The translations under genes and the position numbers were made by a program. The notes beneath the pieces were generated by a model, which ran no database searches, was not told where the DNA came from, and saw only the letters and a list, made by a program, of their open reading frames with translations. Below are positions 11,430-63,947 of a stretch of 64,000 nt of DNA, piece after piece. The DNA is from a bacterium (lineage in GTDB: Bacteria; JADJOY01), in NCBI GenBank assembly GCA_046331705.1, contig JAXLQJ010000009.1, forward strand, positions 124,001 through 188,000. Reading direction: 5' to 3'. The stretch's first letter is position 1; every line of letters starts with the position of its first letter.

Positions 11430-11436
11430 CATCGGC

Positions 11437-36997: not shown

Positions 36998-37076
36998 GGC
37001 GCCAGCGCACGGCGGCGCGCGCGCTTCGCGCCGCCGCTTGATCGGCGCGAAGCCTCGCCGCTACGCTCGCGTCGCG

Positions 37077-38121: not shown

Positions 38122-38973
38122 TCAGCGGTGGAACGCGGCGAGGAATTGCCAGAGCATCTCGGAGGCGTCGACGGTCGCGACCAGGCGGCCGGTGTTCAGG
38201 TGCTCGGAGATGTCGACGCCGCCCGGCCAGGTGTGACCGCCTTCGGGCAGCGTGACCACCACGACCGGCGCGCCCTCCGGGCCATCCGGCGCGAAGCGCT
38301 CGATCCGGCAATCCTTGCCGTCCACCGTCTCGACCGCCGCCGCTCGGCAGCGATTGACGCGACGCCACCACGCGATGGTATCCGGCACCGGCCGGTAGTC
38401 CACCCGCGAGAACTGATTCTCGCCGATGCCGCCCGCGAACTGCACGTTGCGGTCCGCGAGCCCGTGCACGTGGATGACGGGGGTGGGAAGGCGCGGCGCC
38501 GGCCCATCGAAGGTGAGCGTCGCGCTCACCACGCCGATCGCCGCGAATCGCTCCGGCACCTCGCACGCGAGGCGATAGCAGAACATGCCGCCGTTCGAGA
38601 ATCCCACCGCATGGGTACGCGCGGGATCGACCTCGACGCGGCTGCCGATCGCGTCGAGCAACGCCAGCGTGAAGCCCACGTCGTCCGAGCCCACGCGCAT
38701 CGCGTAGCCGCAGCAGGCACCCGCGTTCCAGGTGAGCATCCGATCGCGGAAGCGGCCGATCCCGTCCGGGTAGGCGACGACGAAGCCGTGCTTGGCGGCC
38801 ACGCGGTCGAGACCGCTCTGGCGCCGCATCAGCGCGGCGGTCCCCAGGCCGCCGTGGAAGGCCACCACCAAGGGCACGCGCGTGCCGGCGGCGAGCGTCG
38901 GCGGCACGACCACGAGCGCGCGCCGCTCGCGGCCGTCGTGCTGCAGACGGATCTCGACCGCGCTCGAGTCCAT
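38122..38973 (-). CDS. LpqC/PHB depolymerase-family esterase
   Basis: VVAFHGG, VAYPDG, WNAG.CC, GFSNGG, HG.AD, GGHTWPG; no signal peptide. Confidence 0.85.
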   Translation of the reverse strand: MDSSAVEIRLQHDGRERRALVVVPPTLAAGTRVPLVVAFHGGLGTAALMRRQSGLDRVAAKHGFVVAYPDGIGRFRDRMLTWNAGACCGYAMRVGSDDVGFTLALLDAIGSRVEVDPARTHAVGFSNGGMFCYRLACEVPERFAAIGVVSATLTFDGPAPRLPTPVIHVHGLADRNVQFAGGIGENQFSRVDYRPVPDTIAWWRRVNRCRAAAVETVDGKDCRIERFAPDGPEGAPVVVVTLPEGGHTWPGGVDISEHLNTGRLVATVDASEMLWQFLAAFHR

Positions 38974-38976
38974 GGC

Positions 38977-39735
38977 TCAGCCCGCGGCGGGTTCGGGCTT
39001 CGGCTTGCGCTTGCGCGCGCCGAGCGGCGCGATCTGGACGTTGAGCAGCGTGGTGTCCGCCGGCAGCGCCAGCAGCGCCACGATCAGCTCGCCCACCCGC
39101 TCGGGAGGCAGCGCGTCGCCGGGCTTGGGCACCGGATGATTCTGCTCCCACATCGGCGTGTCGATCGCGTGCGGGCAGATCACCTGCACGCGCACGCCGT
39201 CGCGCCGCACTTCCTCGGCGAGCACCTGACTCAGGCCCACCACGCCGAACTTGGAGGCGCAGTAGGCGCCATCGTGGGCGCGCCCCACCAAACCGGACAC
39301 GGAGGACACGTTCACGATCGAGCCCGAGTGCTGCGCGACGAGCGTGGGCAGCACCGCGCGATTGCTCAGGAAGGTCCCCTTCAGGTTGATGGCGATGACG
39401 TCGTCCCACTCCTCGACCGTGATCTGCGCCACCGGCTTGGGCGGCGTGCCGCGCTTGCGCAGGATGCCCGCCGCGGCGACCAGACCATCGAGCCGGCCGA
39501 AGCGCGTCAACGTCGCCTGGACGAGCGCCTGGTTCTCGGTCTCGCTGCGCGCGTCGTAGGCGAACGCCAGCGCGCGCTCCGCGCCGAGCTCGTCCACGAG
39601 CTCCTGGGCGCGTTCGGCGGACACGTCCGCGACGGTGACACGACCGCCTTCGGCCACGATCCCGCGGCACGTCGCGCGCCCGATCCCGCCGGTGCCCCCC
39701 GTCACGATGATCACTTGGTCGTCGAGCCTACCCAT
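38977..39735 (-). CDS. Short-chain dehydrogenase/reductase (intact motifs)
   Basis: TGGTGGIG, NVSS, YCASK. Confidence 0.92.
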   Translation of the reverse strand: MGRLDDQVIIVTGGTGGIGRATCRGIVAEGGRVTVADVSAERAQELVDELGAERALAFAYDARSETENQALVQATLTRFGRLDGLVAAAGILRKRGTPPKPVAQITVEEWDDVIAINLKGTFLSNRAVLPTLVAQHSGSIVNVSSVSGLVGRAHDGAYCASKFGVVGLSQVLAEEVRRDGVRVQVICPHAIDTPMWEQNHPVPKPGDALPPERVGELIVALLALPADTTLLNVQIAPLGARKRKPKPEPAAG

Positions 39736-39932
39736 GCCGCCACCTCTCCTCTCGTGTGCGACGCACCCGGCCCGCCGCCGCGCGTGCGCGCCGTTCGCCG
39801 CGGGCGAGCAGCGGTCGCGATTCCGCCCGACGGCTCTCGCGCAGCGCCTGCGTCACCGTGTACCCGCGCCGGCGTGACCCCGCTCGCCCGTCCCCGTCGC
39901 CGCGAGACGCGGGCGAGCTCGCGCGCGACGAT

Positions 39933-40238
39933 TCACGCCGCGCCGAATTGCTTGGCGAGGAAATCGACGACGTCACCGACGCGGATGTCCTCGACGTACT
40001 TCCCATCCTCCATGAGGATGTCCTGGAACGGCAGATCGCGACGCTGATAGTGCTCCTCGAGCGCCGTGACGAAGTGCACGACGTCGATCGACTCGAACGA
40101 CAGATCGTTCACCAAGCGCGTCTCCTCGCCGAGCCCGGCGCCGAAGTCGACGTCCCAGTCCGCGGTGAGCTCGGTGAGCACCTTGATCACGTCGGCCAAC
40201 ACCGCATCGCGGGTAGCCGGTCCCCCTTGTGCCGCCAT
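39933..40238 (-). CDS. Stand-alone acyl carrier protein
   Basis: Small acidic protein, DLSFESIDVV, AGGAG before ATG 40238. Confidence 0.8.
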   Translation of the reverse strand: MAAQGGPATRDAVLADVIKVLTELTADWDVDFGAGLGEETRLVNDLSFESIDVVHFVTALEEHYQRRDLPFQDILMEDGKYVEDIRVGDVVDFLAKQFGAA

Positions 40239-40299
40239 CTCGATTCTCCTTTCGGCGTTGTGCTTCGCCAAAACGTCCGGTCTAGCACACCCCCGCGGT

Positions 40300-41055
40300 T
40301 CAGCCGTCGGCGCTCGGCCGCGTCGCGGCCTTGCGCGCGCGCGACCGGCCGCCGCTGAAGGGCTGGACCACCAGATTCTCGCAACACGCATCGGCAGGCA
40401 GGCCGAGACAGAAGAGCACGGCGTCGGCGATGCGCTCGCCGGACGGGGAGCCGCCGGCGGGGCCGTCTCCGCCCGCGATCTCGAGCGCGGTGGGAGCGAG
40501 GACGCATTGGACGCGCACGCCGAACGCGCGCACCTCCTCGGCCAGCGACTCGCTCATGCCGATCACTCCGGCCTGGGCCGCGCTGCCGATCGAGTCGAAC
40601 GCGCGCCCCTTGCGGCCGCTGGTCGCCGCCACGTTGACGACCTCGCCGCGCCGCTGCGCGGTGAGCGCCTTGAGCGCGGCGCGATTGGCGAAGAACGCCC
40701 CGCGCAGCTCCGGACCCACGATCGCCTCGTAGCCGCCGTCGTCCACCTCGAGCAACCCACCCGCGCCGACGGTGCGCTTCGCCGCCAGGCCGGCGGCGTG
40801 CACCAAGGCGTCGAGCTTGCCGAAGCGCTCCCGCGCGGCCGCGACCATCCCCTCGCACGCCTCGGCGCTGGCGAGGTCGCACGCGTGCGTCGCGAGCGCC
40901 TCGCTCGCGAGCGTCGCCGGCAACGCGGCGAGCGCGTCCCCGTCCGCGTCCACCGCCAGCACCGACGCACCGCGCGCCAGCAACGCGCGCGCGATCGCGA
41001 GACCTGCATCGCGCGCTGCACCCGTGACGATCACCACCGCACCGCCGATCTCCAT
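40300..41055 (-). CDS. SDR-fold protein lacking catalytic YxxxK
   Basis: TGAARDAG; GSAAQ where the paralogues have YCASK; otherwise collinear with the neighbouring SDRs. Confidence 0.8.
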   Translation of the reverse strand: MEIGGAVVIVTGAARDAGLAIARALLARGASVLAVDADGDALAALPATLASEALATHACDLASAEACEGMVAAARERFGKLDALVHAAGLAAKRTVGAGGLLEVDDGGYEAIVGPELRGAFFANRAALKALTAQRRGEVVNVAATSGRKGRAFDSIGSAAQAGVIGMSESLAEEVRAFGVRVQCVLAPTALEIAGGDGPAGGSPSGERIADAVLFCLGLPADACCENLVVQPFSGGRSRARKAATRPSADG

Positions 41056-41115
41056 CTCCTCGCCCTCTTCCTTCCTCGCCCGCCGCCGCGATCCCCGCCT
41101 GCGACCGGGACTCGC

Positions 41116-41907
41116 TCAATGCCCCTTCTGCTGATAGGAGCCGGCGCTCGACGGCAGCACGACGGGCTGATCGAAGCGCACGTCCCACGGCTGCGCCAGG
41201 CAGTCCACGACGAACTCGCCGACCGTCTCGGGACGCAGCAAACCGCCCACGGTGAGCTGCGTGCCTTGCACCATCGGCGTGTCGACCATGTCGGGCAGCA
41301 TGGTGATGACGCGGATCCCGTGCGGCTCGAGCTCCTCCACCAGCGACTGCGAGAACGCGTTGAGCGCGTGCTTGGACGCGCAATAGCTCGCCGCGTACGC
41401 GTAGCCACGTCGGGCCGCGGGCGCCGACGAGACGTTGAGGATCTGACCACCGCCGCGCTCGCGCATCAGCCGTGCAGCCACCTGGCAGCACAGGAAAGCA
41501 CCGCGCAGATTGGTGTCCACCACGTCGTCCCATTCCTCGCGGCTCAGGTGCATGAGCGCCAGTGGCAGGCCCTTGCGGGAGCGCGGGCTCGCGCCGAGGC
41601 CGGCGCTGGTCACCAGCAGGTCCACGCGGCCGAAGCGCGCCAGCGTCGCGGCGAAGAGCGACTCGATCGAGCCGCGCTCGCGGACGTCGCAATCGGCGAT
41701 GCCGAGCCCCTCCGGGACGCTCGCCGCCGCGGCCGCCACTCGCGCGGCGTCGCGCCCGGCGACCACCACTCGCACGCCGCGGCGTCCCAGCTCGCGGACC
41801 ACGGCGAGCCCGATCCCGCTCGATCCGCCGGTCACCACCGCGACCTGGCCGCGGAGATCCGCGCCCGGACCGCGTGCGGGCTCACGCCGCTCGACGGCCG
41901 CGCTCAC
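41116..41907 (-). CDS. Short-chain dehydrogenase/reductase (intact motifs)
   Basis: TGGSSGIG, NVSS, YCASK; GTG 41907 overlaps the upstream stop. Confidence 0.9.
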   Translation of the reverse strand: MSAAVERREPARGPGADLRGQVAVVTGGSSGIGLAVVRELGRRGVRVVVAGRDAARVAAAAASVPEGLGIADCDVRERGSIESLFAATLARFGRVDLLVTSAGLGASPRSRKGLPLALMHLSREEWDDVVDTNLRGAFLCCQVAARLMRERGGGQILNVSSAPAARRGYAYAASYCASKHALNAFSQSLVEELEPHGIRVITMLPDMVDTPMVQGTQLTVGGLLRPETVGEFVVDCLAQPWDVRFDQPVVLPSSAGSYQQKGH

Positions 41908-44444
41908 CGCCCACCTCGTCCGCGCGGCGCCACCGGGCGACGCGCGTGCACCAGCGCGTGCGCCACCACCACGCCGCTGCCGCCCGGCAGCAGCGCGAGC
42001 ACCTCGGCGCATTGAGCGGCATCGAGCTGCTGGAGGAGCGTCTTGGTCGCGAAGAACTGGCGGCTGTGGTGGTAGAAGCGCTCCCAGCCCTCGCGGGTGA
42101 CGTCGATGAGGCGGATCTCGCTCAGCCCCGCGGCTTCCAGCTCGCGCGCGTAGCCGCCCAGCACGGCCTCGCGATCGGCGGCGGGCAACAGCGCTTCGGC
42201 TTCGAGATCGCCGCCCAATCGTCCCGACAAGAGATCGCTCGCCACCAGATCGCCACCGGGGCGCAGCACGCGCAACACCTCGCGCAACGCGCCGCCGCGA
42301 CGCGCGGCGTGCAACCCCTCGATCCACACGAGCGCGTCGAACGACTCGTCGGCCACCGGCAAGCGGCCGCTCGGCGCGGCCGCGAGCGCGGCGATGCGCG
42401 CGTCCGGTCGCTCGCGTCCGGCGATTCGCTCCAGATCTTCCGGCCCGGTCCCCACGACGAGGATGCGCGTGGGAGTCGCACCGGGCTCGGGCGCGGCGAC
42501 GCGCCGCACGAGCTCGCTCACCATCGCCTCCGCGGCCTGCGCGGGAGTGGATACGTCCTCGCGCCAGGCGCCGACGTTCCGCAGCCCAGCGCCGCCCCGT
42601 CGCCACAGCCCGGCTTGGCGCATGGCGGTGCCGACGAAGTAGGCGTCGATCTCGGCCGTCACCGCGAACGCGGGCGCGATGGGATCGGGACCGAGGCCAG
42701 CGAGGGCGATCTGGGGATCGCGGCCCCGTTCGACGGCCCCGCCCTGCTCGTCGGCGGCGCGATGCGCGACGTCGGCGATGAGTCCATCGAGGAAAGCCTC
42801 GCCGCCCACGACGTCGGTGGACTCGCCGCCGAGCGGAAGCTCGACCCCCGCCGGCAGCGTCGGCTCGCGCACGACGGCCTCGAGCTCGAACCCGCCGGCG
42901 AGCGCGATCTCCTCGGCGACCGGGTCACCCTCGCCGTGGTGATCGAAGGAGCCGTGCCAGATCTCGATGCCACCGCGAGGATTGTCCTCGTAGCGCCAGC
43001 CGTTCGGTCCCTTCACCGCGACCTCGGGGCCGAACGGATTGGCGGTGCCGACGAAGAAACCGCGTGGCGTCGAGAGCAGCGCCCGGATGCCGTAGTTGTA
43101 GACGTTGCCGAAGCCGTTGCGGGTCACCGGCGTCCAATCGTCGCCGTCGACCGTGCGCCAGAGCTCGGCGCCGCCCTTGAGCTCGAGGTAGCGCTCCAGC
43201 GTGACCGGATCGATGAGTCGCCGCACGCGCTCGTCCCAGGCGTTGCGATCCGCGTACGGCAGGAACGAGGCCACGTCGAACGTCCCGGCGTAGAGCGCGC
43301 CCTCGTGCGCCCGCAGTCGCCACAAGTAGCCCGCGAAGAAGTTGTCGAAGCCGGGCCCGAGCCCGCTGGTCGGCGACTGGAAGCCGAAACGCGTCATGCG
43401 CGGCTCGCCCATGACCAGCTCGAAACGATCGTCGGGCCACACCCGCACGATCTCGCACGCCGCGCGGCCGACGTTGTTGATGCGGTCGTGGCCGCCGTTC
43501 TGGATGCCGGTGCCCACGTAGAGCGCGCCGCGGTGCTCCGCGAAGCAAAGCACCATCTCGTCGTGCGGCCCGCGATCGAAGCCTCGATCGGCCACCAACG
43601 TCCAGCGGTGCGGCGGCGGCCCTTCCCCATCGGTCTTCCAGAGCTGCGCGCCATGTCGGACGTTGATGGTCCCGGCGTACAGAAAGCCGTTGGCGACGCC
43701 CAGGTCGAAGATGCCGCGGTTGGTGGGGTCGCCGAAGAAGGGCGGGTTCGAGACGTGCCACCGCTGGCTGAGGGGGTCGTCGGTGCACAGCACCGAGGTG
43801 TTGAACGCCTCGTTGCAGAGACCGCCGCGAGAGCCGGACGGGGTGATGAAGAGATTGCCCTTGAACGGCACGACCCCGCGATACGAGACCACGTTCGGAT
43901 CGTCGAGCCCGAGCCCGGGCTTGCTCACCTGCTCGAAATGCTCGCCGTCCTCACAGCGCAAGAGCACCGGTCCCTGCCCGTACGAGCCGCACGACGGGAT
44001 CGTGTAGAGCACCGGCTCGCGATCGCTCTTGCCCTGGAACACGCCCATGTTGCGGAAGCCATAGGCGACCGGCACCGGCTTGTCGTTGGTGCCGATCGTC
44101 ATCGGGCTCTTGTAGACACGCTTCCAGACGTCGGCGTCGACGTCGTAGCGCCAGACCTCGCCCGCGAGATCCAGATCGAACACCGATGCCGGCATGCGCA
44201 CCGGCCAGACCTCGGTGGGCACGGTGTACGGAAAGCGCGCCTTCATGAGCACCAACATGTGGCGATTGGTGCCCACGTAGAGGTGATTCTTGAACCAAGC
44301 GCAGCCCCACGCGTACGAGTTTCGGCCGTCGCCGAAGCCGCGCTTGGCCACACAGCGGAAATGGCCCGCGCTCAGCGCGAGCGGGCGCCCCGCCCCCGCT
44401 TCGGCGGGGGAAGCGGCGCTCGCCGGGAGAACGCGCGCGGTCAC
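41904..44444 (-). CDS. Beta-propeller repeat domain fused to a class I SAM methyltransferase-like domain
   Basis: About six GF(G/D)...LY(V/A)GT repeats; C-terminal LP.ADESFD, REVLRVLRPGG.LV.SD; start uncertain. Confidence 0.7.
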   Translation of the reverse strand: MTARVLPASAASPAEAGAGRPLALSAGHFRCVAKRGFGDGRNSYAWGCAWFKNHLYVGTNRHMLVLMKARFPYTVPTEVWPVRMPASVFDLDLAGEVWRYDVDADVWKRVYKSPMTIGTNDKPVPVAYGFRNMGVFQGKSDREPVLYTIPSCGSYGQGPVLLRCEDGEHFEQVSKPGLGLDDPNVVSYRGVVPFKGNLFITPSGSRGGLCNEAFNTSVLCTDDPLSQRWHVSNPPFFGDPTNRGIFDLGVANGFLYAGTINVRHGAQLWKTDGEGPPPHRWTLVADRGFDRGPHDEMVLCFAEHRGALYVGTGIQNGGHDRINNVGRAACEIVRVWPDDRFELVMGEPRMTRFGFQSPTSGLGPGFDNFFAGYLWRLRAHEGALYAGTFDVASFLPYADRNAWDERVRRLIDPVTLERYLELKGGAELWRTVDGDDWTPVTRNGFGNVYNYGIRALLSTPRGFFVGTANPFGPEVAVKGPNGWRYEDNPRGGIEIWHGSFDHHGEGDPVAEEIALAGGFELEAVVREPTLPAGVELPLGGESTDVVGGEAFLDGLIADVAHRAADEQGGAVERGRDPQIALAGLGPDPIAPAFAVTAEIDAYFVGTAMRQAGLWRRGGAGLRNVGAWREDVSTPAQAAEAMVSELVRRVAAPEPGATPTRILVVGTGPEDLERIAGRERPDARIAALAAAPSGRLPVADESFDALVWIEGLHAARRGGALREVLRVLRPGGDLVASDLLSGRLGGDLEAEALLPAADREAVLGGYARELEAAGLSEIRLIDVTREGWERFYHHSRQFFATKTLLQQLDAAQCAEVLALLPGGSGVVVAHALVHARRPVAPRGRGGR

Positions 44445-44496
44445 GGGACCACCGACTCGAGCGGAACGTGTGCGCGCGGGGCGGAGCGGACGAGCG

Positions 44497-46074
44497 TCAC
44501 TCGAGGTAGCCGAGGCCGCGCAGCCGCTCCATGATCGCCGCCTCTTCGTCCTCGTCCAGGTTGGCATCGTCGCCGGCCGCGGCGCTCGCGGTCGCGGCGA
44601 CCGCGCCGTGCGTCTTCCGCGGCGGATCGCTGGCGAGATACTCGGGCTCGTAGAAGTTGGCGGGGAACGAGCCTTCGTAGTCGCCGGGGATCTCGAGACC
44701 GAGGCTGTGCAGCAGAAGCTGCGGCACCTCGATGATGTCGCGCACCTCGAGCTCCTGGCCTTCGACGATGCCGGGACCGCGGCCGAGCAGCACTCCGTGC
44801 GGATGGTGGGTTCCCGCTGGCTCCTCGCGGGGCACGACCTGCGCCTTGCCGTTCAAGATCGAGATCAGGCCGTGGTCACGCAGCGTGAGCGTCAGATCCG
44901 GCGCACGCTCCGTGTACGGGCCCGGCCACCAATCCTCGCGCTTCTTGATCTCGGTCACCACCAAGCCACCGTCCGGCCCCTTCAGCTTGTAGAGCTTCTC
45001 GATCAGCTCGTCGCGGACCTGGTTCGCTTCTGCCGCGCTGAGATGCTGCCGGTTGATGTAGATGCCATTGCAGCTCGGCGTCATCGCGAACGCCTTGGTC
45101 TTCTTCAGATCGATGGCGCTCACCAAGTTCGGCAGCTTGTCGACGAACACCGCCTCCTTCGCGTCCTCGGCAACCTCGCCGCGCCACGTCAGGTAGCCGT
45201 GGTCGGCCAGGAACTTGTTCACGTAGACGATCTCGGTGGTGACCGTGAAGCCGTGGTCGGAAGCGATGAAGATCCGCGCCCACTTGCCGGCGCGCTTCAC
45301 CACCGCCCCCAGGAAATCGTCGATCTGCTTGAAGTAGACCTTGCAGCGCTCGATGACCTTCTTCTCCCAGTCGAGCGGATTGCCGGGAATCGTCGAGGGA
45401 TCGAGGTAGCGGTAGGCCAAGTGCTGGATCTTGTCGACGCCGTCGAAGACGATGGCCGTGAGGTCGCTCGGCTCGGTGCGCATCAGGTGATCGAGGATGC
45501 CGTACCAGGCCTTCTCGCGCCGGATGTGCAGATCGATCCACTCCACCCATTGATCCGGGTCGAGCTTCTGCAATCCCATCTTCTCGATGTTGGTGTCGAG
45601 ACCGAGCACGTTCACGTCGAAACCGTCGACGTGCTGGAGCTTGGCGAAGAGGTCCGACGGGTGGCTCGAACGCCGCAGGTGCTTGGGCGGCACGAAGCCC
45701 GGCATCACGTGGCCGTTGATCTTGGGCGGGGGCGCCGTGCCGAAGAAGTTGAGCACGGTGACGCGCTTGCCCTGGTCCGAGACGTATTGCCAGATGGTCT
45801 CGACGGCGATCGTCCGGTAGTCGTTGACGCGGAAGTAGACGCCGTCCTGGGTGGGCTCGTAGCGCAGGAAGTCGTGCATGCCGTGGTTGCCGGCGCTGCG
45901 CCCGGTGGCGAGCGTGGTCCAGGCCTGCGGCGTGATCGGCAGCGGCGTGGAACGCAGCCGGCACGACGTCGACTCCTCGCGGAACTTCTGGAAGTTGGGC
46001 ATCACGCCCTGGGCCACCATGTGATCGAGCACGGTGTACGTCGCGCCGTCGAGTCCGAAGAGAATGGTCTTCAT
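44497..46074 (-). CDS. Alkaline phosphatase superfamily (nucleotide pyrophosphatase/phosphodiesterase-like) protein
   Basis: GLDGA, PITPQAW (Thr nucleophile), DKIQH, SDHG, GTHH, C-terminal ERLRGLGYLE. Confidence 0.85.
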   Translation of the reverse strand: MKTILFGLDGATYTVLDHMVAQGVMPNFQKFREESTSCRLRSTPLPITPQAWTTLATGRSAGNHGMHDFLRYEPTQDGVYFRVNDYRTIAVETIWQYVSDQGKRVTVLNFFGTAPPPKINGHVMPGFVPPKHLRRSSHPSDLFAKLQHVDGFDVNVLGLDTNIEKMGLQKLDPDQWVEWIDLHIRREKAWYGILDHLMRTEPSDLTAIVFDGVDKIQHLAYRYLDPSTIPGNPLDWEKKVIERCKVYFKQIDDFLGAVVKRAGKWARIFIASDHGFTVTTEIVYVNKFLADHGYLTWRGEVAEDAKEAVFVDKLPNLVSAIDLKKTKAFAMTPSCNGIYINRQHLSAAEANQVRDELIEKLYKLKGPDGGLVVTEIKKREDWWPGPYTERAPDLTLTLRDHGLISILNGKAQVVPREEPAGTHHPHGVLLGRGPGIVEGQELEVRDIIEVPQLLLHSLGLEIPGDYEGSFPANFYEPEYLASDPPRKTHGAVAATASAAAGDDANLDEDEEAAIMERLRGLGYLE

Positions 46075-46159
46075 GGTCCTTTCCTCGAGCCGTGGGTCCC
46101 GGCGAAGGATCGCGCCCCCGCGCTGCGATCCCGCTTCGCCCGTTGCTCGCGCAGGCGTC

Positions 46160-49100
46160 TCAGGACGCCTCGTGAGTGAGTAAGCACAACGTGACGGAAT
46201 GCGTCTCCGTGGAAGTGATCCTGCGATACGCGTGAATCTTGCGGCGCGCCCAGGCCGGGAAGGCATCCGCCATCGTGCCCCTCAGCTCGACGGTGATGCG
46301 CCCCTGCGAGCCGTCGGCGGCGACGACCTCGATCGCGCGCGGTCCGCCCTTCACCCCGCTGCCGAGCGCCTTGCCCACCGCCTCCTTGGCACCCCATGCC
46401 GCGATGAGCCAGGCGTCCTGCGACTGGCCCGTGGCGCGCGCGGCACTCAGCAACAGCGCGCGCTCGGAGGGGTTGAACGCGTCGTTCACCAGCGCCACGT
46501 CCATGGTGCCGACGGGCTCGACGTCGATGCCGACTCCCGCGAACCGCTGCGGGTCGCCGGCGACGGCGACCGCAGCGAAGCCGCTGTGCGCCAAGCTCAG
46601 CGCCGGTAACGAGGCACCGGGCAGCACCGCGCGGGGCGCGCCCTCGCCGTCGTTCACGATCTCGACGTCCGCCATGCAGACGTCGAGCTTGCCCCACCGT
46701 CGCACCGCGTCCTTGGCGACGACACGACCGAAGAGCCAGCCCGCGAGCAGCACCGGCGGCCGCTTCAGCGCCTCGAACGTCGCGCGCTCGGCGCGGCTCA
46801 GGATCATGTGCGCGAGCGCTCGCTGCCACAGGTGCTTCACCACGATCGGGCTGCCGATGGTGCCGATCTCGCACACCAGCGCGTGCTCGATCCCGGGCAC
46901 TCCCGCGAACAGCCCGGAGAGGTCGCGGGTCATCACCGGCTTTCGCGGCGCGGAGCCGTAGTGGTAGAGCGCCGTGGGCAGCTCGACGGTCTCGTCGACG
47001 CGCCCCATCACCCGCAGCACCACGCGACCGGAAGGCTCGCGCATCTCGACGTCGGAGAGCACGCGATTGCCCTCGCGCACCACGGTCGAGACGGTGCTCA
47101 AGGGCGCGCGTGGATCGCTCAGCCGGCTCCACTCGACGCGCCGATAGCCGTTCGGGAAGATCAGCGTGATCGTCGGATCCTCGTCCCGCCACGGACCCAG
47201 GATCTCGAGGCCGGGCACGTGGCCCGCGGTGTCGATGAGCGCGGCGGGAATCGCGGGAACCCCGGGAGTTTCCGGCAGGAACAGCAGGTCCGGGTCCGGC
47301 TGCACGAGGGTGGCCGACACGCCTCGCGCGTCGCACCGTTCCGCCGACACGATGCCGGCGAACGCCGGTCCGTGGAAGAGCATCCTGCCGTACATGTCCT
47401 CGGGGCGGATGCGCGCCGGGGCCTCTGCCTGATCCGGCACCACCGGCGGCCCGAGCTCCGGTGCGCTCTCGGCGAGCTCGACGAGCGCCTCCACGATCGT
47501 GGGCGCGCTCGCGGCACCGTCGCCGCCCAGCACGCGGCCGCGTGCCTTGCGCTCGCCCTCGCACACGACCTCGACGCGAATCGTGCGCTCCGGCGGATCG
47601 AAGACGAGCCAGCCCGCGGTCTTGACCTCCGCGAGCGCGCGCACCACCAAGCCCGGGTGAAGCAACAACGCCGCTTCCGCGATCAGCTCCTCGGACATCG
47701 CCAGCGCCATGATCGGCAAGCCCCGCAACGAGGGATCGCGGACCGAGAGCTCGCGGCCGAAGAACGTGTGATCGATCAGGAAACCGAGGCGGTCCGAGTC
47801 GAGCTCGCACTCCACGAGGATCCGCTGCCCGGGCTCGTGCTCGATCACCCGCGTGACGAGCGGAGTCGCGTCGGTCCGCCGAGCGAGCGCTGGCGCATCG
47901 GACGAGCCGGGGGCGACCTGCGGCGGGGGCGCATCCGCGACCGCCCGCGGTGTGGAAGCGGCGCGCGGCGCCGGCGCGTGGCCACGCGTGAGCGCGCTTC
48001 GCATCACGCGCTCCTGGGTATCGAGGAAGAGCCGCATGGTCTCCTGATAGTCGACCAGCGCGCGGCGGCGCGCGCGGCTCGCGCCCGGGACGCGCGGCTC
48101 GCTCGTCGGCGGCGCGACGGGCGAGAGCGCGGGTCCGTGCTGCGCCGCAGCGAGCGGCGCGGCTTCCGGCCCGGGTGCCGGCGCCGGCGCTCCTCGGCGG
48201 CGGTGCCGACGCGACCGCTCCGGCGCGCATCAGCCCGCGCGCGAGCGGGCGCGCGGCAGACGAGCTCGACGCGGGGCTCGCGCGCTCGGCGCGGGCCGCG
48301 ACCGGCGCATCGGCGCGCATCGCCGGCGCGACACGACCGATGCGCTCCTGGACGCGCGCGACGGTCGCGTCGCCGAGCGTGAGCTCGGGCAGCGCGAACG
48401 GCAACGGGGGATCCTCGGGCAAGCGCCGCAGCGGCTCGCCGAGAGCGATCTCGCGCGGCCCGCGGGCGGCGGTGAGCGCGTCGAGCCTCACGTCCACGCC
48501 GTGCGCCACCAGCATCCCGAGCGCTCGGCAGAGCTGTTCGATCCCGTGCTTGCGGCGCACGTCGAGCGCCACCGCCGCATGCGGGCGGGTGCCGAGCGTG
48601 TCCGACACGAAGTTCGTGAGGTTGCCGCGTGGTCCGACCTCCAGGAAGAGCCTCACGCCGTCGGCGTGCATCGCCTCGATGGTCTCGCGGAAGCGCACCT
48701 TGGAATGCCATTGGCGCACCGCGAGCTCGCGCACGGCTCCCGGCTCGGCGGGAAACTTGGCGGCCGTCGCGCACGACCACAGCTCGACCTTCGGGGTGCC
48801 GACGCCGACGGTGGCGTAGTACTCGGCGAGGATCGGGCAGGCCGCGCGAAAGCCCTCGGTGTGATACGCGCGTCCCCACGGCAAGCGCTCGCAGAGCCCG
48901 CCCTTGCCGCGCAGGCCATCGAGCGCCTCGCGGGTGGCGTCCTCGTCGCCCGAGATCACGAGCTGGCTCGGGCAATTGTCCATCGCCACCACCAGGCGAC
49001 CGTTCGAACGCTCCAGCACCTCGTGCACCGCGACCGGATCGGCGCCGCCCACCGAGGTGAGCACGGCGGCCTTCGCGAGCCCTTGGCCGGCGATGCGGGT

Positions 49101-51233
49101 GGCGACGTCCGCGCCGTAGGCGATGGCGCGGATGCGCGCGTCCTCGTCGGCGACGCCATACGTGCCCGCGGCCTCGAGCGCCATGAACTCGCCGCTCGAA
49201 TGGCCCACGATCGCGTGCACCGGCACCGCCAAGCGCGCGAGCAAGGCCATCAGCGCGCGCTCGGCCGCGATCACGGTGCCGACGGCGCCCTCCAAGCCGA
49301 GCAGCGCTTCCTCCGCCCGCTGCTCGTCCCCCGGTAACGGGAAGATCACCGGGCTCACCGGCTTGCCGCCGCTGCGGCTCGCGAAGCCCGCGTCGGTGAC
49401 GTCGAACTCGCGACGCACCTCGGGAAAATGCCGCGCCAGATCGGCGAGCATGTTCACGTACTGGGCGCCTTCCCCGGGGAAGAGCCAGGCGACTCGACCT
49501 TCGCGGGCGAGCGGTCGCTGGTACCAGAACACGCCGCTGCGGTCCTGGATCTTCTCGCGATCCGCTTGCCCGAGGAGCTTCACCGCTTGCCTGAGCTTCT
49601 TGACCAGGTCCGCGGCGTCCTTGGCCACGATCGCCAAGCGCGACGCGCCCGCCTCGCGCTGACACGCGGCCGCGACGTCGAGGAGCTCGAGATCCGTGTT
49701 GGCGTCGAGCCAATCGGCGAGCGCGCTCGCGCGCGCCAGCAGCGCGGCGCGGTCGGGCGCGGACACCACGACCAGCTCCACGGGCCAGCGGCGCTCGAGT
49801 CGTTCCAGCGTCCGCTCGTCGCCGCCCAGGTATTCCTCGAGGATCGCGTGGGCGTTGATGCCGCCGAAGCCGAACGCGTTCACGCCGGCGCGCCGCGGCG
49901 AGCTCCGATCTCCGTGGATCCAGGGCCGCGCGCGTGTGGAGAGATAGAAAGGCGTCTCGTCCAGCTTGAGCGCGGGGTTGGGCTCGTCGGCGTGGAGCGT
50001 CGGGGGGAGCACGCGATGATGAAGCGCCAGCGCGGTCTTGATGAGCGAGGCCGCGCCCGCCGCCGGCAAGAGGTGACCGATCATCGACTTGACCGCGCCC
50101 AGTGCGATGGTCGCGCGCTCCGCCTTGCGCCTGCCGAAGCACGCCACCAAGGACTGGATCTCGGTGGCGTCCCCGCGCGCCGTGGCGGTGCCGTGGGCCT
50201 CGATCAAGCCGACCGTGCCGGGATCGATTCCCGCCGACTCGTACGCGCGGTCGAGCGCCAGCACCTGCCCCTCGAAACGCGGCGCGAGCAGTCCGAGGCC
50301 GCGGCCGTCCGAGGCCGTGCCGACTCCCCGCAGCAACGCATAGATCCGGTGGCCATCGCGTTCCGCGTCGACCCGGCGCTTGAGCACCAGGATTCCGCAT
50401 CCCTCGCCGAGCAACGTGCCGTCCGCTTCGGCGCCAAAGGGAGCGATCTGGCCCGAGTGGCTCGCTGCGTCGAGGTTGCTGAACAGCAGATGGATCGGTC
50501 CGGGCGTGGAGACCTGCACGCCACCCACCAACACGGCGTCGCAGCGCCCGGCGGCGAGCTCGCGCATGCCGTGCTCCACGGCGATCAGCGTGGACGCGCA
50601 AGCGGCGTCGATGGTGTAGGCCGGGCCCATCAGATCGAGGCGGTTGGCGATGCGGCCGCACATCACGCTGTTCACGAGGCCGGGCACGATCTCGGCGTTG
50701 AAGGGCGGCAGCGCCGCCTTCACGTCGTCCTTGATCGCCACCAGCGTCGCGGCGTCGAGCTCGGGGTGCAGCCGCGCGATCACCGCCATGACCTGGTCGA
50801 CGGCCCAGCCGTGCGCCACCCAGCTCAGCGTGCCGCGGTTCACGTAGAGCCCGCGAGCGAGGATCACGCCGGTGCGCTTGCGGTGGAGCGGCCGGTCGGG
50901 GATCCCGGCATCGGCGAGCGCCTCGAACGCGCAGCGCAGCGCCAGGAAGTGGTCCGGCTCGGCGCCGTCCACGCTCGACGGCATGACCCCGTAACGCGCG
51001 GCCTTGAAGCGGCTGAGCTCACCCAGGAAGCCGCCCTTGGTCGTGTAGACGCGATCGTTCGACTTGGCCTCGCTCGCCTCGGCGCCGCTCGCGCGGCCGT
51101 AGCGATCGGGCCACCAATCGGCGGGCGCCTCGGTGATCGCGTCCACCGCGCCGACGACGTTCTGCCAGAAGGCCCGGGTATCCCCCGCGCCCGGGAAGAG
51201 GCAGGACATGCCCACGATCGCGATGTCTTCCAT
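46160..51233 (-). CDS. Type I PKS KS-AT-DH-PPTase, frameshifted near 48190
   Basis: KS DAACAS/EAHGT/KSMIGH, AT GHSSG/AYHT; second frame DH FLIDHTFFG, LFHGPAF and Sfp-type PPTase GRVVAKDA/SLAHS/GIDVE/WGAKEA. Confidence 0.85.
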
Positions 51234-51313
51234 GGCTCAGCGTCTCGTGCGGACGATGGTTTCGACCCGGGGTCGACCGAACCGCGTCGCCCCGTCGATT
51301 TCCGCGCGGCGGA

Positions 51314-59536: not shown

Positions 59537-59764
59537 CTCGCGATCTCCTCGGATATGACGCGTTGCACCAGCATACCCATCGCGCGCCGGAGTCCGCAAC
59601 CTTCGGGGCGCGTTTTCGTCAGGCCGAACATGGGATTGCGCCGCCGAGCGCGACGGCTCGCCGGATGAATCCACGGCGTCGGCGGCATCCTGGGAAGCCG
59701 CCCGGAACTGTCTTCTTTTGCAGACAAATTCGGAAGATTGTGGACGCTCACGCTCAAGCGATCA

Positions 59765-59780
59765 TGCAAACGAGGCGCCA
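59765..59780 (-). promoter_or_regulatory. Sigma54 -24/-12 promoter candidate for the PKS operon
   Basis: Minus strand TGGCGCCTCGTTTGCA, ~230 nt above ATG 59536. Confidence 0.55.
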
Positions 59781-60022
59781 GTGAACTCGGGAGGCGGGAT
59801 CGTGCGGGAAGCATCATCGACACGCAGTGCGTCATAGCGCGCGCACAGCGCGCCCGCCAAGCCTGCGACAGGCGACCGGAGTCCCGGCTCCAGCGCCGCT
59901 GGTGACTCTCCCTATTCCGGCGGCGGATCCGCTCGCGAGCGGTCACCCTTGCCACGCGATGCGGCGGCGCATGAACATGGTTCGCTCGACTTGCGCTCAT
60001 CGTCGGCACACCGCACCGTCGC

Positions 60023-62320
60023 ATGCTTCCCAAGCGTCGCCCCGACCTGGAAATCCTCCGGACCGGCCCGACCACCTTTTTGGTGGCGGACCCCAGGACG
60101 GGGACATCCTACACCTGTGGGACGGCCGAGCGCGTGCTGCTTGCGCTGGTGGACGGCAGCCGTACCCCGGAGCAAGTCGCCGCGACCTACAGCGAACGTG
60201 CCGGTCAACCGATCGCGCTGCGCACCGTGGTCGAGTTCATCGAGCAGCTTCGTAGCCTGGGCTTTCTCGACGAGCCCGGCGCGGTGCCGCTCGCCGCCGT
60301 CGCGGCGCCGACGCCGCCGCTCGCCGCGGCGCTCGCCACCTCGCCGACCCCGGTGGGCGGTGTGAACGTCTTCTTCGACGTGCTCGCCGTGTTCTTCGGC
60401 TGGCTCTTCCATCCCCTCACCCTCGTCCCGATCGTGTCGATGGCGATGCTGGGGATCGCGGTGCTGGTGCAGGAATGGGAGCGCTACGAGACCCAGTTCG
60501 GCACGCTCACGCGCACGCTGCCGATCCTCAACCTCGCGATCTTCTCCCTGGCGCAGACCGTCGTGTTCATGAATCTGCCGCGCGAGGTGGCGGTGGGAGT
60601 CGCGTGCCGGCGCTTCGGCGGCCGCGTGCGCCGCTTCCACCTCTACTGGGTCGCGGATCTCATTCCATTCGTGAACTGCGACACCGGCGACTCGATCCAC
60701 CGCATGCGCGACCGCGCTCGCTGGACCGTGCTCACCGCGGGGCTGTGGACGCAGGTCGCGATCTTCGCCATCGCGGCGCTGGGCTGGGGGATCGCCGATC
60801 CCCACTCGGACCTCAGCCGCTTCTGGCTGTTGCTGGTGCCGCCCTGCGTGGTCGGCCTGGCGCTGCACGCCGTGATCTTCCTGCGTTACGACGGCTACCG
60901 GATCCTGTGCGCGTACTTGCGCGACGGCCAGATCCGCGAGCGCGCGCTGGGTGAAACCCGCGCCTGGCTCTCGGGCCGCCCCGGCCCCGCGGCGCTCGGC
61001 GAGCGCGAGCGCTTCTGGCTGCGCGCGTACGGCATCGGCTACTACGTCTTTCTCGTCGCGGCGCAGCTCACCTTGTTGATCGGCGGCGGGTGGTGGCTCG
61101 AGTCGCGGTTCGGTCCCAGCGGACTGGGATTCGGCCTGGCGGTGTACCTTTGGGCGTTTCGAAAGGAGGTCGGTGCGATCATGACGGACAACGAAGGGTA
61201 CCGCTGGCTGGTCCGCAAGGGCGGCTCGAAGACCGTGCGCTGGGCGCTGCGGATCGGCGGCTTGATCGTCGTGATCGTGGTCTTGCTGGCACCGTACGAT
61301 CGCGAGGTTTCCGGCGAATGCCGCGTGGTGGCGGGCGCCGAGGTGGGCTTGCGCGCGCAGCTCACGGACGAGGTCGTGGCGGTTCACGTGACGCCGGGTC
61401 AAGAGATCGAGGCGAACCAGCTGGTCGCCACGCTGAGCGGCCGCGAGCTCGTGACGCAGCTACGCACGGCGGAGGCCGAGCTCAAGCACGAGCAGGCCGA
61501 TCTCGATCGGCTGCTCAACGGCGTGCGGCCCGAGGACCTGGCGATCGCCGAGCACGAGCGCGACCTCGCCCGCAGCGAGCTCGCGTTCGCCGAGGACGAG
61601 CTCAAGCGTGAGCAGGCGCTGCTCGCGGGCAAGGCGTCGACGGCGGAGAAGGTCGAGACGGCGCGACGGCGACGCGACAGCGCCCAGCAGCGCCTCTCGA
61701 TCGCCGACCAAAATCTCGCGAAGACGCGCCAGGGCGCCCGCCCCGAGGACATCCAGGCGCATCAGGCGGAGGTCGAGCGGCTGACCGAACGCGTCCGCTA
61801 CTGCACGGCGCAACAGGCCCTGCTCGAGATCCGTTCGCCGATCGCCGGGCGGGTCATGACGCAGGACATCGCCGAGCGCGTGGGCCAGGTCGCCGAGAAG
61901 GGTGACCTCATCGCCGTGATTCAGGACGACCGCCACCTGCGCGTCGAGGTCGGCGCCGAGGAGGCGGCGGTCCCCGAGGTTCGCGAGGGCATGCCCGTGC
62001 ACGTGCGGCTGCGCGGCCTGAACGGGCGCCTCGTCACCGGCAAGGTGGCGAGCATCGTCCGCACCGCGGCGCCGGAAAGCGAGCTCGACGTGGACGCCTA
62101 CCGCACCGACCGCGAGGCGCACCTTCAGCAGTCGATGAAGCAGAGCGAGGACACCTACCAGGTGCGCGTGGTGGTGACGCTGGATCCGAGCGACGAGAAG
62201 CTCTCGCCCGGGATGACCGGCTTCGCGCGCATCGTGATCGGGCCGGACGTCTTCGGGCGCGCGGTGATCCGCCCGGTGCTGCGCTACCTGCGCACCGAGG
62301 TGTGGTCGTGGCTGCCGTGA
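60023..62320 (+). CDS. PqqD-like / M50-like membrane domain (no HExxH) / HlyD membrane fusion protein
   Basis: N-terminal DP.TG..Y/L.DGSRT winged helix; TM region with LRYDGY; coiled coil, IRSPIAGRV, LSPGMTGFARI. Confidence 0.75.
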   Translation: MLPKRRPDLEILRTGPTTFLVADPRTGTSYTCGTAERVLLALVDGSRTPEQVAATYSERAGQPIALRTVVEFIEQLRSLGFLDEPGAVPLAAVAAPTPPLAAALATSPTPVGGVNVFFDVLAVFFGWLFHPLTLVPIVSMAMLGIAVLVQEWERYETQFGTLTRTLPILNLAIFSLAQTVVFMNLPREVAVGVACRRFGGRVRRFHLYWVADLIPFVNCDTGDSIHRMRDRARWTVLTAGLWTQVAIFAIAALGWGIADPHSDLSRFWLLLVPPCVVGLALHAVIFLRYDGYRILCAYLRDGQIRERALGETRAWLSGRPGPAALGERERFWLRAYGIGYYVFLVAAQLTLLIGGGWWLESRFGPSGLGFGLAVYLWAFRKEVGAIMTDNEGYRWLVRKGGSKTVRWALRIGGLIVVIVVLLAPYDREVSGECRVVAGAEVGLRAQLTDEVVAVHVTPGQEIEANQLVATLSGRELVTQLRTAEAELKHEQADLDRLLNGVRPEDLAIAEHERDLARSELAFAEDELKREQALLAGKASTAEKVETARRRRDSAQQRLSIADQNLAKTRQGARPEDIQAHQAEVERLTERVRYCTAQQALLEIRSPIAGRVMTQDIAERVGQVAEKGDLIAVIQDDRHLRVEVGAEEAAVPEVREGMPVHVRLRGLNGRLVTGKVASIVRTAAPESELDVDAYRTDREAHLQQSMKQSEDTYQVRVVVTLDPSDEKLSPGMTGFARIVIGPDVFGRAVIRPVLRYLRTEVWSWLP

Positions 62321-62381
62321 ACGGTCGCGCGGTCGCCGCCACGGGACGGCCTCGTGGGCGCGCGTCGGACGACGGTCGCGC

Positions 62382-63947
62382 TCACTTGGCGCGCAGCGCC
62401 GGCCCGCCGATGGCGCGCGCCAGATCGAACTGCGCGCGGTCGTAGCTCGCCAGCGCATTCGCGAGTGCGCTCTGCGCGCGCGTCAGCTCGAGCTCGGCGC
62501 GCAGCACCTCTTCCTGCACCGCCGCGCCCTCTCGGTAGCGGACCTTGGCCAGCTCGTAGGACTCGGCGTTGGCCCTCACCTCGCGCACGGCGGCGAGGAT
62601 CGTGCCCGCCGAGGCTTGCGAGCTGCGATAGGCCCGCACCACCTCGGATGCGACGGTACGCGTGACCTGCGTCTCGGCGACCTCGGCCTTGCGCCGCGCG
62701 GCTCGCGCCTTGTCGAGCTGCGAGAGGTTGGCGGGGTCGAGCGCCCACTCCGCTGCCGCCGTGTAAACCTCGCGGTCGTCGAGATCGCGGGGATTCGTGC
62801 CGAAGCCGCCGTATTCCGCCGTCAGCTTGAGCTGCGGGATGAGCCAGCGGTTCTCCCAATAGCCCTCGTTCTCGCGCGACGCCGCCAGCTCCCGCCCGAG
62901 CTGAGCCACCTCGGGACGATCCGCCACCGCACGCCGCACCAGCTCGTTCAAGTCGTCGAGCGCGATCAGCTCCACGGCGGCGATCGCATCCTCCGCGGGA
63001 ACGAGCTCGGTGGTGGGCGGCAATCCCAGCTGCTCGACGAGCTTCGCCGAGGCCACCGCCACCTGCCGCCGGGCCTCGAGCACGCCACGCTCCGCCTCCG
63101 CGAGCTTGGCCTGCGCGCGCAGCAGATCCACCTCGAGCCCAGCACCGCTCGACACCCGCGTGAGCTCGAGATCGACCAGCTCGCGGCCGTGACGCACCGA
63201 GCTCTCCGCGATCCACAGCTCGGCGCAGCTCTCGACCAGATCGAAGTAGCCGGTGGCCGCCGTGTGCAAGCTGTCGTGCGCCTCGACGCGAATCGCATCG
63301 AGCGCCCCGGCCAGGTGCTCCTCGGCTGCGGCGAGCGTGAAGAGCGCCGCATCCAAGTCGTAGCTGAGCGAGATCTTGGGGCCGAAAAACGAGTTCTGGT
63401 AGTTCGCCTCGAAGAAGCGGCCGGCGGTGCCTTGGGTGAAGCCGTTCAACAGACCGAACTTCGCCTGGGTCGCGACGCTCGGCAGCAGCGAGTCGCGCAC
63501 GATGCGCCGCTCGGCTTCCGCCACCGCCGCGTCCTCCTGCGCCATGCGCACGTCGAGCGCCTCGGCTCCCACCGTCGCCAGCAGCTCGGCGAGCGAGATC
63601 GGGCGCGCGCCGGCGAGCTCCGTCGCGAGCGGCATCGCCACGTCCGTGATCGACGTCGGCGTCGCGGGGACACCCGTCAGCGCCGCGCGGGCGCGCGCCT
63701 CCGTGGGCGAGGCGCCGGATTCGGACGGTCCGGAAGGTGCCGACGGTGCGGCGGGCGTGGACGGCGGGGGAGGTGCGACGCCGTCCCGTGACGCGCCTGC
63801 CGCGGCCTCGGGCAGGGCGCGCGGCGCGGGGATCCACACCGCGGGGTCGGGCGGCGTGAGGTCGACGGGATCGACGAAGAGACAACCCGCCGAGCCGAGC
63901 ATGGCGGCGGCCGCGACCACCACCGGCACGAGTGGGTGCTTGCTCAA
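62382..63947 (-). CDS. TolC-family outer membrane efflux protein (lipoprotein)
   Basis: GSAGC lipobox; two OEP repeats (YFDL, RYREG, EVLRAE, LARAIG); TTG start preceded by GGAGG. Confidence 0.88.
   Translation of the reverse strand: MSKHPLVPVVVAAAAMLGSAGCLFVDPVDLTPPDPAVWIPAPRALPEAAAGASRDGVAPPPPSTPAAPSAPSGPSESGASPTEARARAALTGVPATPTSITDVAMPLATELAGARPISLAELLATVGAEALDVRMAQEDAAVAEAERRIVRDSLLPSVATQAKFGLLNGFTQGTAGRFFEANYQNSFFGPKISLSYDLDAALFTLAAAEEHLAGALDAIRVEAHDSLHTAATGYFDLVESCAELWIAESSVRHGRELVDLELTRVSSGAGLEVDLLRAQAKLAEAERGVLEARRQVAVASAKLVEQLGLPPTTELVPAEDAIAAVELIALDDLNELVRRAVADRPEVAQLGRELAASRENEGYWENRWLIPQLKLTAEYGGFGTNPRDLDDREVYTAAAEWALDPANLSQLDKARAARRKAEVAETQVTRTVASEVVRAYRSSQASAGTILAAVREVRANAESYELAKVRYREGAAVQEEVLRAELELTRAQSALANALASYDRAQFDLARAIGGPALRAK

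Follow-up and report, generated by a model that had tools for sequence, protein, structure and literature searches.

The gene cluster at positions 38122–63947 of the window (a 64,000-nt stretch, positions 124,001–188,000 of contig JAXLQJ010000009.1, assembly GCA_046331705.1, from a bacterium of the JADJOY01 lineage) is, judged by its sequence, a Pfa-like iterative synthase cluster, and it is very probably both genuine and of the secondary lipid synthase class. It encodes two polyketide synthases (PKS1 and PKS2) and a free acyl carrier protein (ACP), an architecture already catalogued in 2011 (Shulse & Allen 2011), one product of which was still uncharacterized in 2026. What appears to be undescribed is a conserved escort of non-PKS genes, which travels with this synthase across phyla as a fixed set and encodes a phosphodiesterase-like enzyme of the nucleotide pyrophosphatase/phosphodiesterase (NPP) type, a β-propeller, an α/β hydrolase, a tetratricopeptide repeat (TPR) protein, and a fusion of an M50-like domain with an HlyD-type adaptor, in some loci together with TolC. 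Because dozens of loci, spread over many phyla, have this gene set beside the propeller gene, a chance grouping is excluded. The reading that we favor, with a probability of about 0.5, is that the cluster makes a long, mostly saturated hydroxy or keto lipid, which would be O-methylated in this lineage, released by hydrolysis, and exported.

To survey conservation, relatives of the propeller–methyltransferase protein were collected. Among 8000 candidates scored, 1065 were found in the database at E ≤ 0.001; a scan with one genome per species yielded 269, of which the 80 best loci were retained. When the proteins of the window were compared with these 80 loci by tblastn (E ≤ 1e-6), the ketosynthase–acyltransferase (KS-AT) part of PKS2 and PKS1 were each matched in 61, the NPP-like enzyme in 59, the dehydratase–phosphopantetheinyl transferase (DH-PPTase) part of PKS2 in 56, and the ACP in 55. 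The esterase was matched in 31 loci, the HlyD fusion in 28, and the short-chain dehydrogenases/reductases (SDRs) in 25–26. Many of the missing matches are due to short contigs. Where 9 kb or more of upstream sequence was available (58 loci), KS-AT was present in 54, DH-PPTase in 48, the NPP-like enzyme in 46, and the ACP in 44, with all four together in 39, and only 7 of the 22 shorter loci had KS-AT. Four long loci (L013, L034, L037, and L043) are without KS-AT. With at least 9 kb downstream, the HlyD fusion was matched in 23 of 59 loci.

According to the record titles, the carriers include members of Planctomycetota, Acidobacteriota, Verrucomicrobiota, Kiritimatiellia, Lentisphaerae, Desulfobacterota, Nitrospirota, Tectomicrobia, Binatia, and Actinomycetota, one Gloeobacterales cyanobacterium, and many Pseudomonadota. 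The product is open to direct test in cultured carriers, among them Rubrivivax gelatinosus DSM 1709, R. benzoatilyticus JA2, Pseudomonas subflava, and Ideonella oryzae. Elsewhere, the genes usually stand in the order PKS1, PKS2, ACP, NPP-like enzyme, α/β hydrolase, and propeller, often followed by the TPR protein, the HlyD fusion, and an OEP channel. The source lineage is without the PcaD-like hydrolase and has a trio of SDRs and a polyhydroxybutyrate (PHB) depolymerase-like esterase instead. Closer to the source, the propeller–methyltransferase gene was found in 5 of 5 other genomes of the family, and a second species of the genus (G003) keeps the whole order from the TolC gene to the TPR gene, including the succession TolC–HlyD–PKS1. 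An earlier interpretation made from the letters of the window (hereafter the sequence-only reading) had regarded its case as lost if the accessory genes did not accompany these PKSs elsewhere; the propeller, the alkaline phosphatase (AP)-family enzyme, the ACP, and the HlyD fusion do co-occur with them across phyla. No account of the escort set, or of the alternation of methyl- and sulfotransferases described below, was found in the literature searched, which left out bioRxiv supplements and the Figure 1 gene maps of Shulse & Allen 2011, where neighboring genes might be shown.

The window has a G+C content of about 71%, and its genes were delimited by codon-position GC together with family scans (Pfam and NCBIfam). 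All eleven genes that the sequence-only reading had listed at 38122–63947 were found (Table 1). Nine of them share one orientation on the minus strand, as it had described, and span 38122–59536 with gaps of 3–197 nt, in the order (from 59536 downward) PKS1, PKS2, NPP-like enzyme, propeller–methyltransferase, SDR1, SDR2, ACP, SDR3, and esterase. The HlyD fusion gene, on the plus strand from 60023, diverges from PKS1 as stated there; the TolC gene, which had also been given as divergent, is in fact a minus-strand gene convergent with the HlyD gene. The TPR gene was not in that list.

Table 1. Genes and gene parts of the cluster, with positions in the window.
Feature	Position	Strand	Supporting evidence
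TPR protein	36960–38087	+	Pfam TPR families; convergent on esterase
α/β-hydrolase esterase, PHB-depolymerase/LpqC-like	38122–38973	−	Pfam Esterase, Esterase_PHB; GFSNG nucleophile elbow
SDR3, predicted active FabG-like SDR	38977–39735	−	adh_short E 1.4e-58; YCASK
Stand-alone ACP, atypical DLxFESxD motif	39933–40238	−	Frame by codon-position GC; weak NCBIfam ACP matches
SDR2, pseudo-SDR	40300–41055	−	adh_short E 9.5e-32; without catalytic Tyr and Lys; degenerate Gly motif
SDR1, predicted active SDR	41116–41895	−	adh_short E 3.7e-48; TGGSSGIG, NVSS, YCASK
β-Propeller (residues ~20–505) fused to RebM/AtmM/MitM-like O-methyltransferase (~570–840)	41904–44444	−	Database gene call of 846 aa
NPP-type (AP-superfamily) phosphodiesterase-like enzyme	44497–46074	−	PF01663 E 1.2e-31; no signal peptide evident
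PKS2, DH-PPTase part (frame B)	46160–48109	−	PKS-type DH and C-terminal PPTase; motifs in translation
PKS2, Ala/Pro-rich linker with frame change	48110–48233	−	Codon-position GC shifts from mod 0 to mod 2
PKS2, KS-AT part (frame A)	48234–51233	−	Pfam ketoacyl-synt, Ketoacyl-synt_C, Acyl_transf_1
PKS1, ER(FabK/PfaD-like)-KS-AT-ACPx4-KR, 2740 aa	51314–59536	−	Pfam and NCBIfam domains
M50 (site-2-protease)-like multi-pass domain with HlyD-type periplasmic adaptor	60023–62320	+	HlyD_3, HlyD_D23
TolC/NodT-type outer-membrane channel	62382–63947	−	PF02321 OEP E 8.9e-30; TIGR01844, TIGR01845

Synthase architecture and its catalogued relatives

PKS1, whose open frame extends to 59674 and for which the ATG at 59536 was adopted as the start, scores 1162.5 bits against the PfaA model TIGR02813, above the cut-off of 1010.1. 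Four PP-binding stretches were detected, and four LGIDSIK motifs were read in the translation, so the identification of a Pfa-like iterative synthase with tandem ACPs of this kind stands. The KS-AT-(ACP)n-ketoreductase (KR) order that had been read from the sequence is also present, with the Cys/His/His set of the KS, the GHSxG motif of the AT, and the Tyr of the KR; that reading had missed an N-terminal FabK/NMO-like enoyl reductase (ER) region (Pfam NMO, E 1.3e-7; TIGR03151, 6.5e-9), with which the order becomes ER-KS-AT-4xACP-KR. In PKS2, the KS-AT part carries the motifs DAACAS, EAHGTA, GHLL, and GHSSG and is 80–90% identical to its counterparts in L001, L003, L004, and L009. The second part has the DH motifs LIDHTFFG and LIDTAGH, with the His and Asp of the DH present, and the PPTase motifs GIDVE and WGAKEA (TIGR00556, E 4.4e-9), and its homologue in L069 matches PS-DH and ACPS in Pfam. 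PKS1 and PKS2 together hold every activity of a full reducing cycle, and the PPTase domain is presumably the activating enzyme of the synthase. The PKS2 homologues of L007 (Pirellulales) and L025 (Acidimicrobiia) have the order KS-AT-ACP-DH-PPTase, the additional segment between AT and DH being ACP-like.

The second KS-AT had been described as fused to DH and PPTase; all of these domains are present, but in this assembly they are not in one reading frame. Beyond about residue 960, frame A runs on as some 760 residues of Arg/Ala-rich, wrong-frame sequence. Four relatives (L001, L003, L004, and L009; L002 is without the KS part) have the two parts in a single frame, and in an alignment with L004, L009, and L001, the source assembly has 2 nt fewer than L004 and L009 in the stretch bounded by conserved anchors. 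Logan contigs from four public short-read runs of four studies, inspected over 47600–48800, all end within ~47960–48460, leaving the linker unspanned in every run. The shift of frame may be a real mutation or an assembly error; since the linker is GC-rich and of low complexity and is also the place at which the contigs of every run break off, an assembly error appears at least as likely. The closest named relative, L001, a metagenome-assembled genome titled 'Deltaproteobacteria bacterium', has PKS1, SDR1, and esterase matches that are each split over two frames; this assembly thus has indels of its own, and an assembly error in the PKS2 linker of the source gains in credibility. A decaying pseudogene array, in which the split of PKS2 would leave DH and PPTase unmade and no product formed, agrees with the two frames, the long Arg/Ala-rich continuation, and the 2-nt deficit. 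We nevertheless regard it as unlikely, because this is the sole break seen: in all the other genes the frame stays open, the codon-position GC bias is strong, and the catalytic motifs are intact, and the break lies in a linker that is read through in one frame in the four relatives and at which the contigs of all public runs stop.

By domain order and motifs, the synthase is assigned to the Type M/N/O architecture. These types are listed in Table S1 of Shulse & Allen 2011 as ER-KS-malonyl-CoA:ACP transacylase (MAT)-ACPn-KR, KS-AT-PPTase, and ACP, with products filed as uncharacterized. The entries comprise Frankia, Streptomyces avermitilis, Renibacterium, and Actinosynnema for Type M, Chryseobacterium and, near-identically, Chitinophaga for Type N, and Gloeobacter, Dinoroseobacter, and Parvularcula for Type O. 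The source has the first protein in a single chain, the KS-AT-PPTase protein (frame-split in this assembly, one frame in the four relatives), and the free ACP with its invariant Ser. Its PPTase also carries the motifs reported there for Types M–T, namely P1b' hShxH (LSLAH in the source) and P1a x(G/D)xP (EGAP). The Gloeobacterales relative L052 carries the ACP, NPP-like, and propeller genes as well. Differences are nevertheless present: the Type M/N/O entries list one to three ACPs, whereas the source has four (tandem ACPs were linked to high throughput in the same work), and for the second protein no DH is given in the table, which also has no entry for NPP-like, propeller, hydrolase, or HlyD-fusion genes. 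The sequence-only reading had proposed an undescribed design from the lack of a KS-chain length factor (CLF) and of a FabA-type DH together with a second KS-AT with PPTase and a free ACP. This claim has to be given up, because all of these features match the published types. Its statement that the gene set has no characterized product agrees with the literature searched, where none was found: a 2026 JACS Au paper, in its wording on the Renibacterium arrangement, still speaks of 'an uncharacterized secondary lipid synthase', and a 2016 review, where it refers to secondary lipid synthase products, calls them 'largely unknown'.

Three characterized systems were also compared. The Ars system, a type I fatty acid synthase (ArsA/ArsD) of the alkylresorcinol operon of Azotobacter vinelandii (Type P), resembles the source in that ArsA is listed in Table S1 as ER-KS-MAT-ACP-KR and its partner bears a PPTase. 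As stated in the published account of the system, the Ars synthase makes long saturated C22–C26 acids that stay on the carrier. Ars hands the chain to the type III PKSs ArsB and ArsC, and the ars operon has not been reported with NPP-like, propeller, or export genes. In the window, no Chal_sti_synt match was found among the open reading frames (ORFs) scanned; PF00195 matches in the genome lie on contigs C22, C41, and C18 and not on C9, the only clear type III PKS match being that on C22. An Ars phenolic-lipid system was rejected on this ground, as no type III PKS genes stand beside the synthase.

The heterocyst glycolipid system (hglE/D/C/A/B, Type F) likewise uses a PfaA-like KS-AT-ACPn-KR synthase for a long hydroxylated envelope lipid. 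Export of that lipid involves an HlyD-family adaptor and a TolC-type channel (DevBCA-TolC). The source differs in having no KS-CLF-AT, no ACP-reductase release protein, and no DevBCA ABC exporter, and this system was rejected because KS-CLF-AT, ACP-reductase, glycosyltransferase, and DevBCA were not found within the 64-kb window. Polyunsaturated fatty acid (PUFA) synthases PfaABCDE (Types A and B) have in common with the source the pass of the PfaA model and the tandem LGIDSIK ACPs. In contrast, the source has no PfaC (KS-CLF-DH2), its ER is fused rather than free, and its PPTase is fused to the second KS-AT. A canonical PUFA synthase was rejected, as the second KS keeps its Cys (DAACAS), a single PKS-type DH is present, and no FabA-family match was obtained.

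Escort and tailoring proteins

The NPP-like enzyme, listed by the sequence-only reading as an AlkP-family protein, scores 111 bits against PF01663 (cut-off 23). D9, T48, D214, H218, D273, H274, and H423 are invariant in 25 sequences and fit the two-metal/Thr-nucleophile pattern of NPPs. The structure model (pLDDT 88.7) gave Xanthomonas NPP (7mw8) as the top Foldseek match (E 1.2e-17, TM 0.68 on the target), followed by PhnA, ENPP1/3/5/6/7, and autotaxin, while a sequence search of the PDB returned PhnA alone, and weakly. In its predicted fold, metal ligands, and Thr nucleophile, the protein is a member of the NPP/type I phosphodiesterase family. Prediction of a complex with the ACP scored 0.01 against a mark of 0.32 and weighs neither way. 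In Pirellulales loci, a second NPP-like gene follows the free ACP.

In the propeller–methyltransferase protein (model pLDDT 78.7), the profile matches methyltransferases over positions 601–829 only. This part resembles the O-methyltransferases RebM, AtmM, and MitM, with weak NCBIfam matches to phthiotriol and fatty-acid O-methyltransferases. For the propeller, Foldseek returned designed and natural Kelch propellers and GH74, VIA-align gave virginiamycin B lyase (Z 26.5) tied with YncE and many WD40 proteins (Z 23–26), and the ESM Atlas gave clusters automatically named 'exo-alpha-sialidase'. These matches show the common propeller fold only, and no function follows from them. Searches with the propeller returned no match in the sequences of the PDB and none in a plasmid collection. 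The fusion partner varies: in Pseudomonas subflava, the hydrolase and the propeller form one protein, whereas in the source lineage the methyltransferase is fused to the propeller.

A second Pfa-like locus was observed in the same genome (C58:25000–44999; L087). It contains an acyl-CoA dehydrogenase, a KS-AT-(second KS-like)-2xACP protein, and a very large protein with biotin carboxylase, biotin carboxyl carrier protein (BCCP), ACC-central, and carboxyltransferase domains, as well as a PPTase-like stretch. These genes are followed by a distant propeller paralogue (C58:43289–44515; 25% identity over ~500 residues), so that propellers of this family may go with secondary lipid synthases of more than one type.

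SDR1, for which the GTG at 41895 is proposed as an uncertain start, and SDR3 are intact. SDR2, aligned with them, has TGAARDAG in a degenerate Gly motif and IGSAAQ in place of YCASK; a pseudo-SDR had been suspected, and the lack of the catalytic Tyr and Lys and of the Gly motif confirms it. Ser50 of the ACP is invariant in 23 of 23 aligned homologues. A 92-aa ORF at 39728–40006 was rejected as the ACP, being in the wrong frame by codon-position GC. The esterase scores 147.1 bits against NF050058.

The best family match of the M50-like part of the HlyD fusion is NF041824, a daptide intramembrane metalloprotease (E 1.7e-22, residues 15–347). At the position of HExxH, however, the source has REVAV, and HExxH is kept in only 2 of 23 aligned family members, which speaks against an active M50 site-2 protease in the source. 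This half of the fusion, which resembles M50 in fold and sequence, is thus predicted to be a conserved pseudo-protease embedded in the membrane by multiple passes, and it fits better as a structural element of a conduit formed with HlyD and TolC than as a peptide-processing enzyme. An NPxxxxGY-like motif is kept in many members of the M50-HlyD family and is absent from the source (60023–61300, compared with 22 related loci). A paralogue of the whole fusion, 42% identical, is encoded on contig C88 of the same genome. The TolC open frame runs past the end of the window, and its start is uncertain. TPR matches occur in 26 of the 80 loci, beside the HlyD fusion in L007, L035, and L049, although TPR repeats can match loosely.

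Proposed pathway and its alternatives

Tailoring genes were counted in the 80 loci, with matches required to reach E ≤ 1e-8 and to span half of the query or more. The PcaD-like hydrolase was found in 55 loci, a methyltransferase, free or fused, in 40, the PHB-depolymerase-like esterase in 30, a sulfotransferase in 20, the BD-FAE esterase in 18, and a TauD dioxygenase in 8. Only five loci have both a methyltransferase and a sulfotransferase, and this alternation fits alternative capping of one hydroxyl. We infer a scaffold whose hydroxyl is capped by methyl or sulfate depending on the lineage. A literature search pairing PUFA synthase with sulfotransferase found nothing. At least one of four α/β-hydrolase types is present in 56 of the 61 PKS-bearing loci, and of the remaining five, three are on contigs that stop before that position.

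In the pathway that we propose, PKS1 and PKS2 would build a long, mostly saturated chain from malonyl units, leaving keto or hydroxy groups where reduction is skipped, and the chain, or its last extension, would be carried on the free ACP. SDR1 and SDR3 would then adjust the chain, with the dead SDR2 as a likely structural partner. The propeller-fused O-methyltransferase would cap a hydroxyl, as the sulfotransferase would in other lineages, and an α/β hydrolase would cut the product off, namely the PHB-depolymerase-like esterase here and the PcaD-like hydrolase elsewhere. The pseudo-protease–HlyD protein, the TPR protein, and TolC would take the product outward, where it would become a lipid of the envelope or surface; the NPP-like enzyme and the propeller, as a guess, might act on, or dock, the phosphopantetheine-bearing carrier. 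The sequence-only reading had suggested a hydroxylated or unsaturated lipid with a modified head group that would be exported. Hydroxylation gains support from the methyl/sulfate alternation, which points to a hydroxylated scaffold, while the ER domain fused to PKS1 speaks for a chain that is mostly saturated and against unsaturation. Export is suggested by synteny alone, the export genes pointing to an envelope location.

Several points weigh against this pathway. The frame shift in PKS2 means that it may be dead in this genome. The type of hydrolase is not constant, and the source is without the common PcaD-like one, so hydrolytic release depends on non-orthologous replacement. No energizing transporter (ABC, RND, or MFS) was seen next to the HlyD fusion, within the window or in the 13 kb past its end, and HlyD-M50 fusions are otherwise annotated with peptide systems (daptide, NHLP). 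Moreover, the pathway gives no tested role to the NPP-like enzyme and the propeller, the two most conserved accessory proteins.

One alternative is a non-hydrolytic release, in which the NPP-type phosphodiesterase cuts the serine–phosphopantetheine phosphodiester of the ACP, freeing an acyl-phosphopantetheine lipid or recycling a stalled carrier, while the propeller serves its fused enzymes as a docking site for the carrier. In keeping with this, the NPP-like enzyme has an NPP fold, keeps the full metal and Thr-nucleophile set, and shows no sign of a signal peptide; in most loci its gene comes immediately after that of the ACP, and with the propeller gene it is the most constant non-PKS partner (59/80); and the propeller is fused to the hydrolase in P. 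subflava and to the methyltransferase here. However, α/β hydrolases able to release the chain are present in nearly all loci, and the ACP and NPP-like genes are not adjacent in the source. To our knowledge, no ACP phosphodiesterase of the AP superfamily has a precedent. We therefore consider this release quite unlikely. The escort might then be a new lipid release-and-export module comprising the free ACP with its invariant Ser, a cytoplasmic NPP-type phosphodiesterase, the propeller, the dead site-2-protease–HlyD protein, TPR, and TolC, in which cleavage of the phosphopantetheine phosphodiester would free the chain or recycle the carrier, the product would exit via a tripartite conduit with the pseudo-protease as its inner-membrane part rather than an ABC, RND, or MFS pump, and the propeller would be joined, lineage by lineage, to the tailoring or release enzyme in use. 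This reading as a whole is held to be as unlikely as the phosphodiester release. If true, the phosphodiesterase and the dead protease–HlyD fusion, working as guessed, would each be a new mechanism.

An unsaturated product, polyene or PUFA-like, would follow if PKS2, KS-AT-(ACP)-DH-PPTase, worked as an enediyne- or PUFA-type module. Its DH-PPTase end and the ACP-like stretch between AT and DH in the Pirellulales and Acidimicrobiia homologues agree with this, an AT-ACP-DH-PPTase order resembles that of the enediyne PKSE, and an unsaturated product had been allowed for in the sequence-only reading. Yet the ER is fused to PKS1 in the source and in all Type M/N/O entries of Table S1 (Shulse & Allen 2011), the source has neither a FabA-type DH pair nor a CLF, and the related Ars synthase, in the account cited above, makes saturated acids; such a product is accordingly very unlikely. 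Least probable is an acyl chain on a secreted peptide or protein, with M50-HlyD and TolC as a peptide maturation and export unit: the daptide metalloprotease match and a weak match of the HlyD part to bacteriocin-type adaptors recall such units, but HExxH is missing in 21 of 23 family members, the source included, so that most could not cleave a leader, and no condensation, GNAT, or precursor-peptide gene was found among the ORFs scanned.

Flanking genes

An acyl-CoA carboxylase pair, a biotin carboxylase–BCCP fusion (936 aa) and a carboxyltransferase, lies at 30221–34758 on the minus strand, two genes from the cluster, and may supply it with malonyl-CoA. L001 likewise has a carboxyltransferase and the start of a carboxylase beside its cluster. 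The pair was rejected as a member of the cluster, since two opposite-strand genes intervene and it was not seen in other phyla. At the other end, a GT4-family glycosyltransferase gene abuts the TolC start just past the end of the window (C9:188066–189064, minus strand; L089:1067–2065) and is adjoined by a FabI-like enoyl-ACP reductase gene. The same-genus genome G003 has FabI and TolC there without GT4, and GT4 was rejected as a cluster member for this lack of conservation.

Farther away, arylsulfotransferase (ASST) family and di-haem cytochrome c peroxidase/MauG family genes (20609–22405 and 24708–26831) stand amid PAS histidine kinases, and no link to the cluster was seen for them. A gene run of the ornithine/lysine fermentation type occupies 2536–11436, with amino-acid kinase-family, alanine-racemase-fold, MutL-family, B12-dependent aminomutase, pyridoxal phosphate enzyme, and 2,4-diaminopentanoate dehydrogenase genes.

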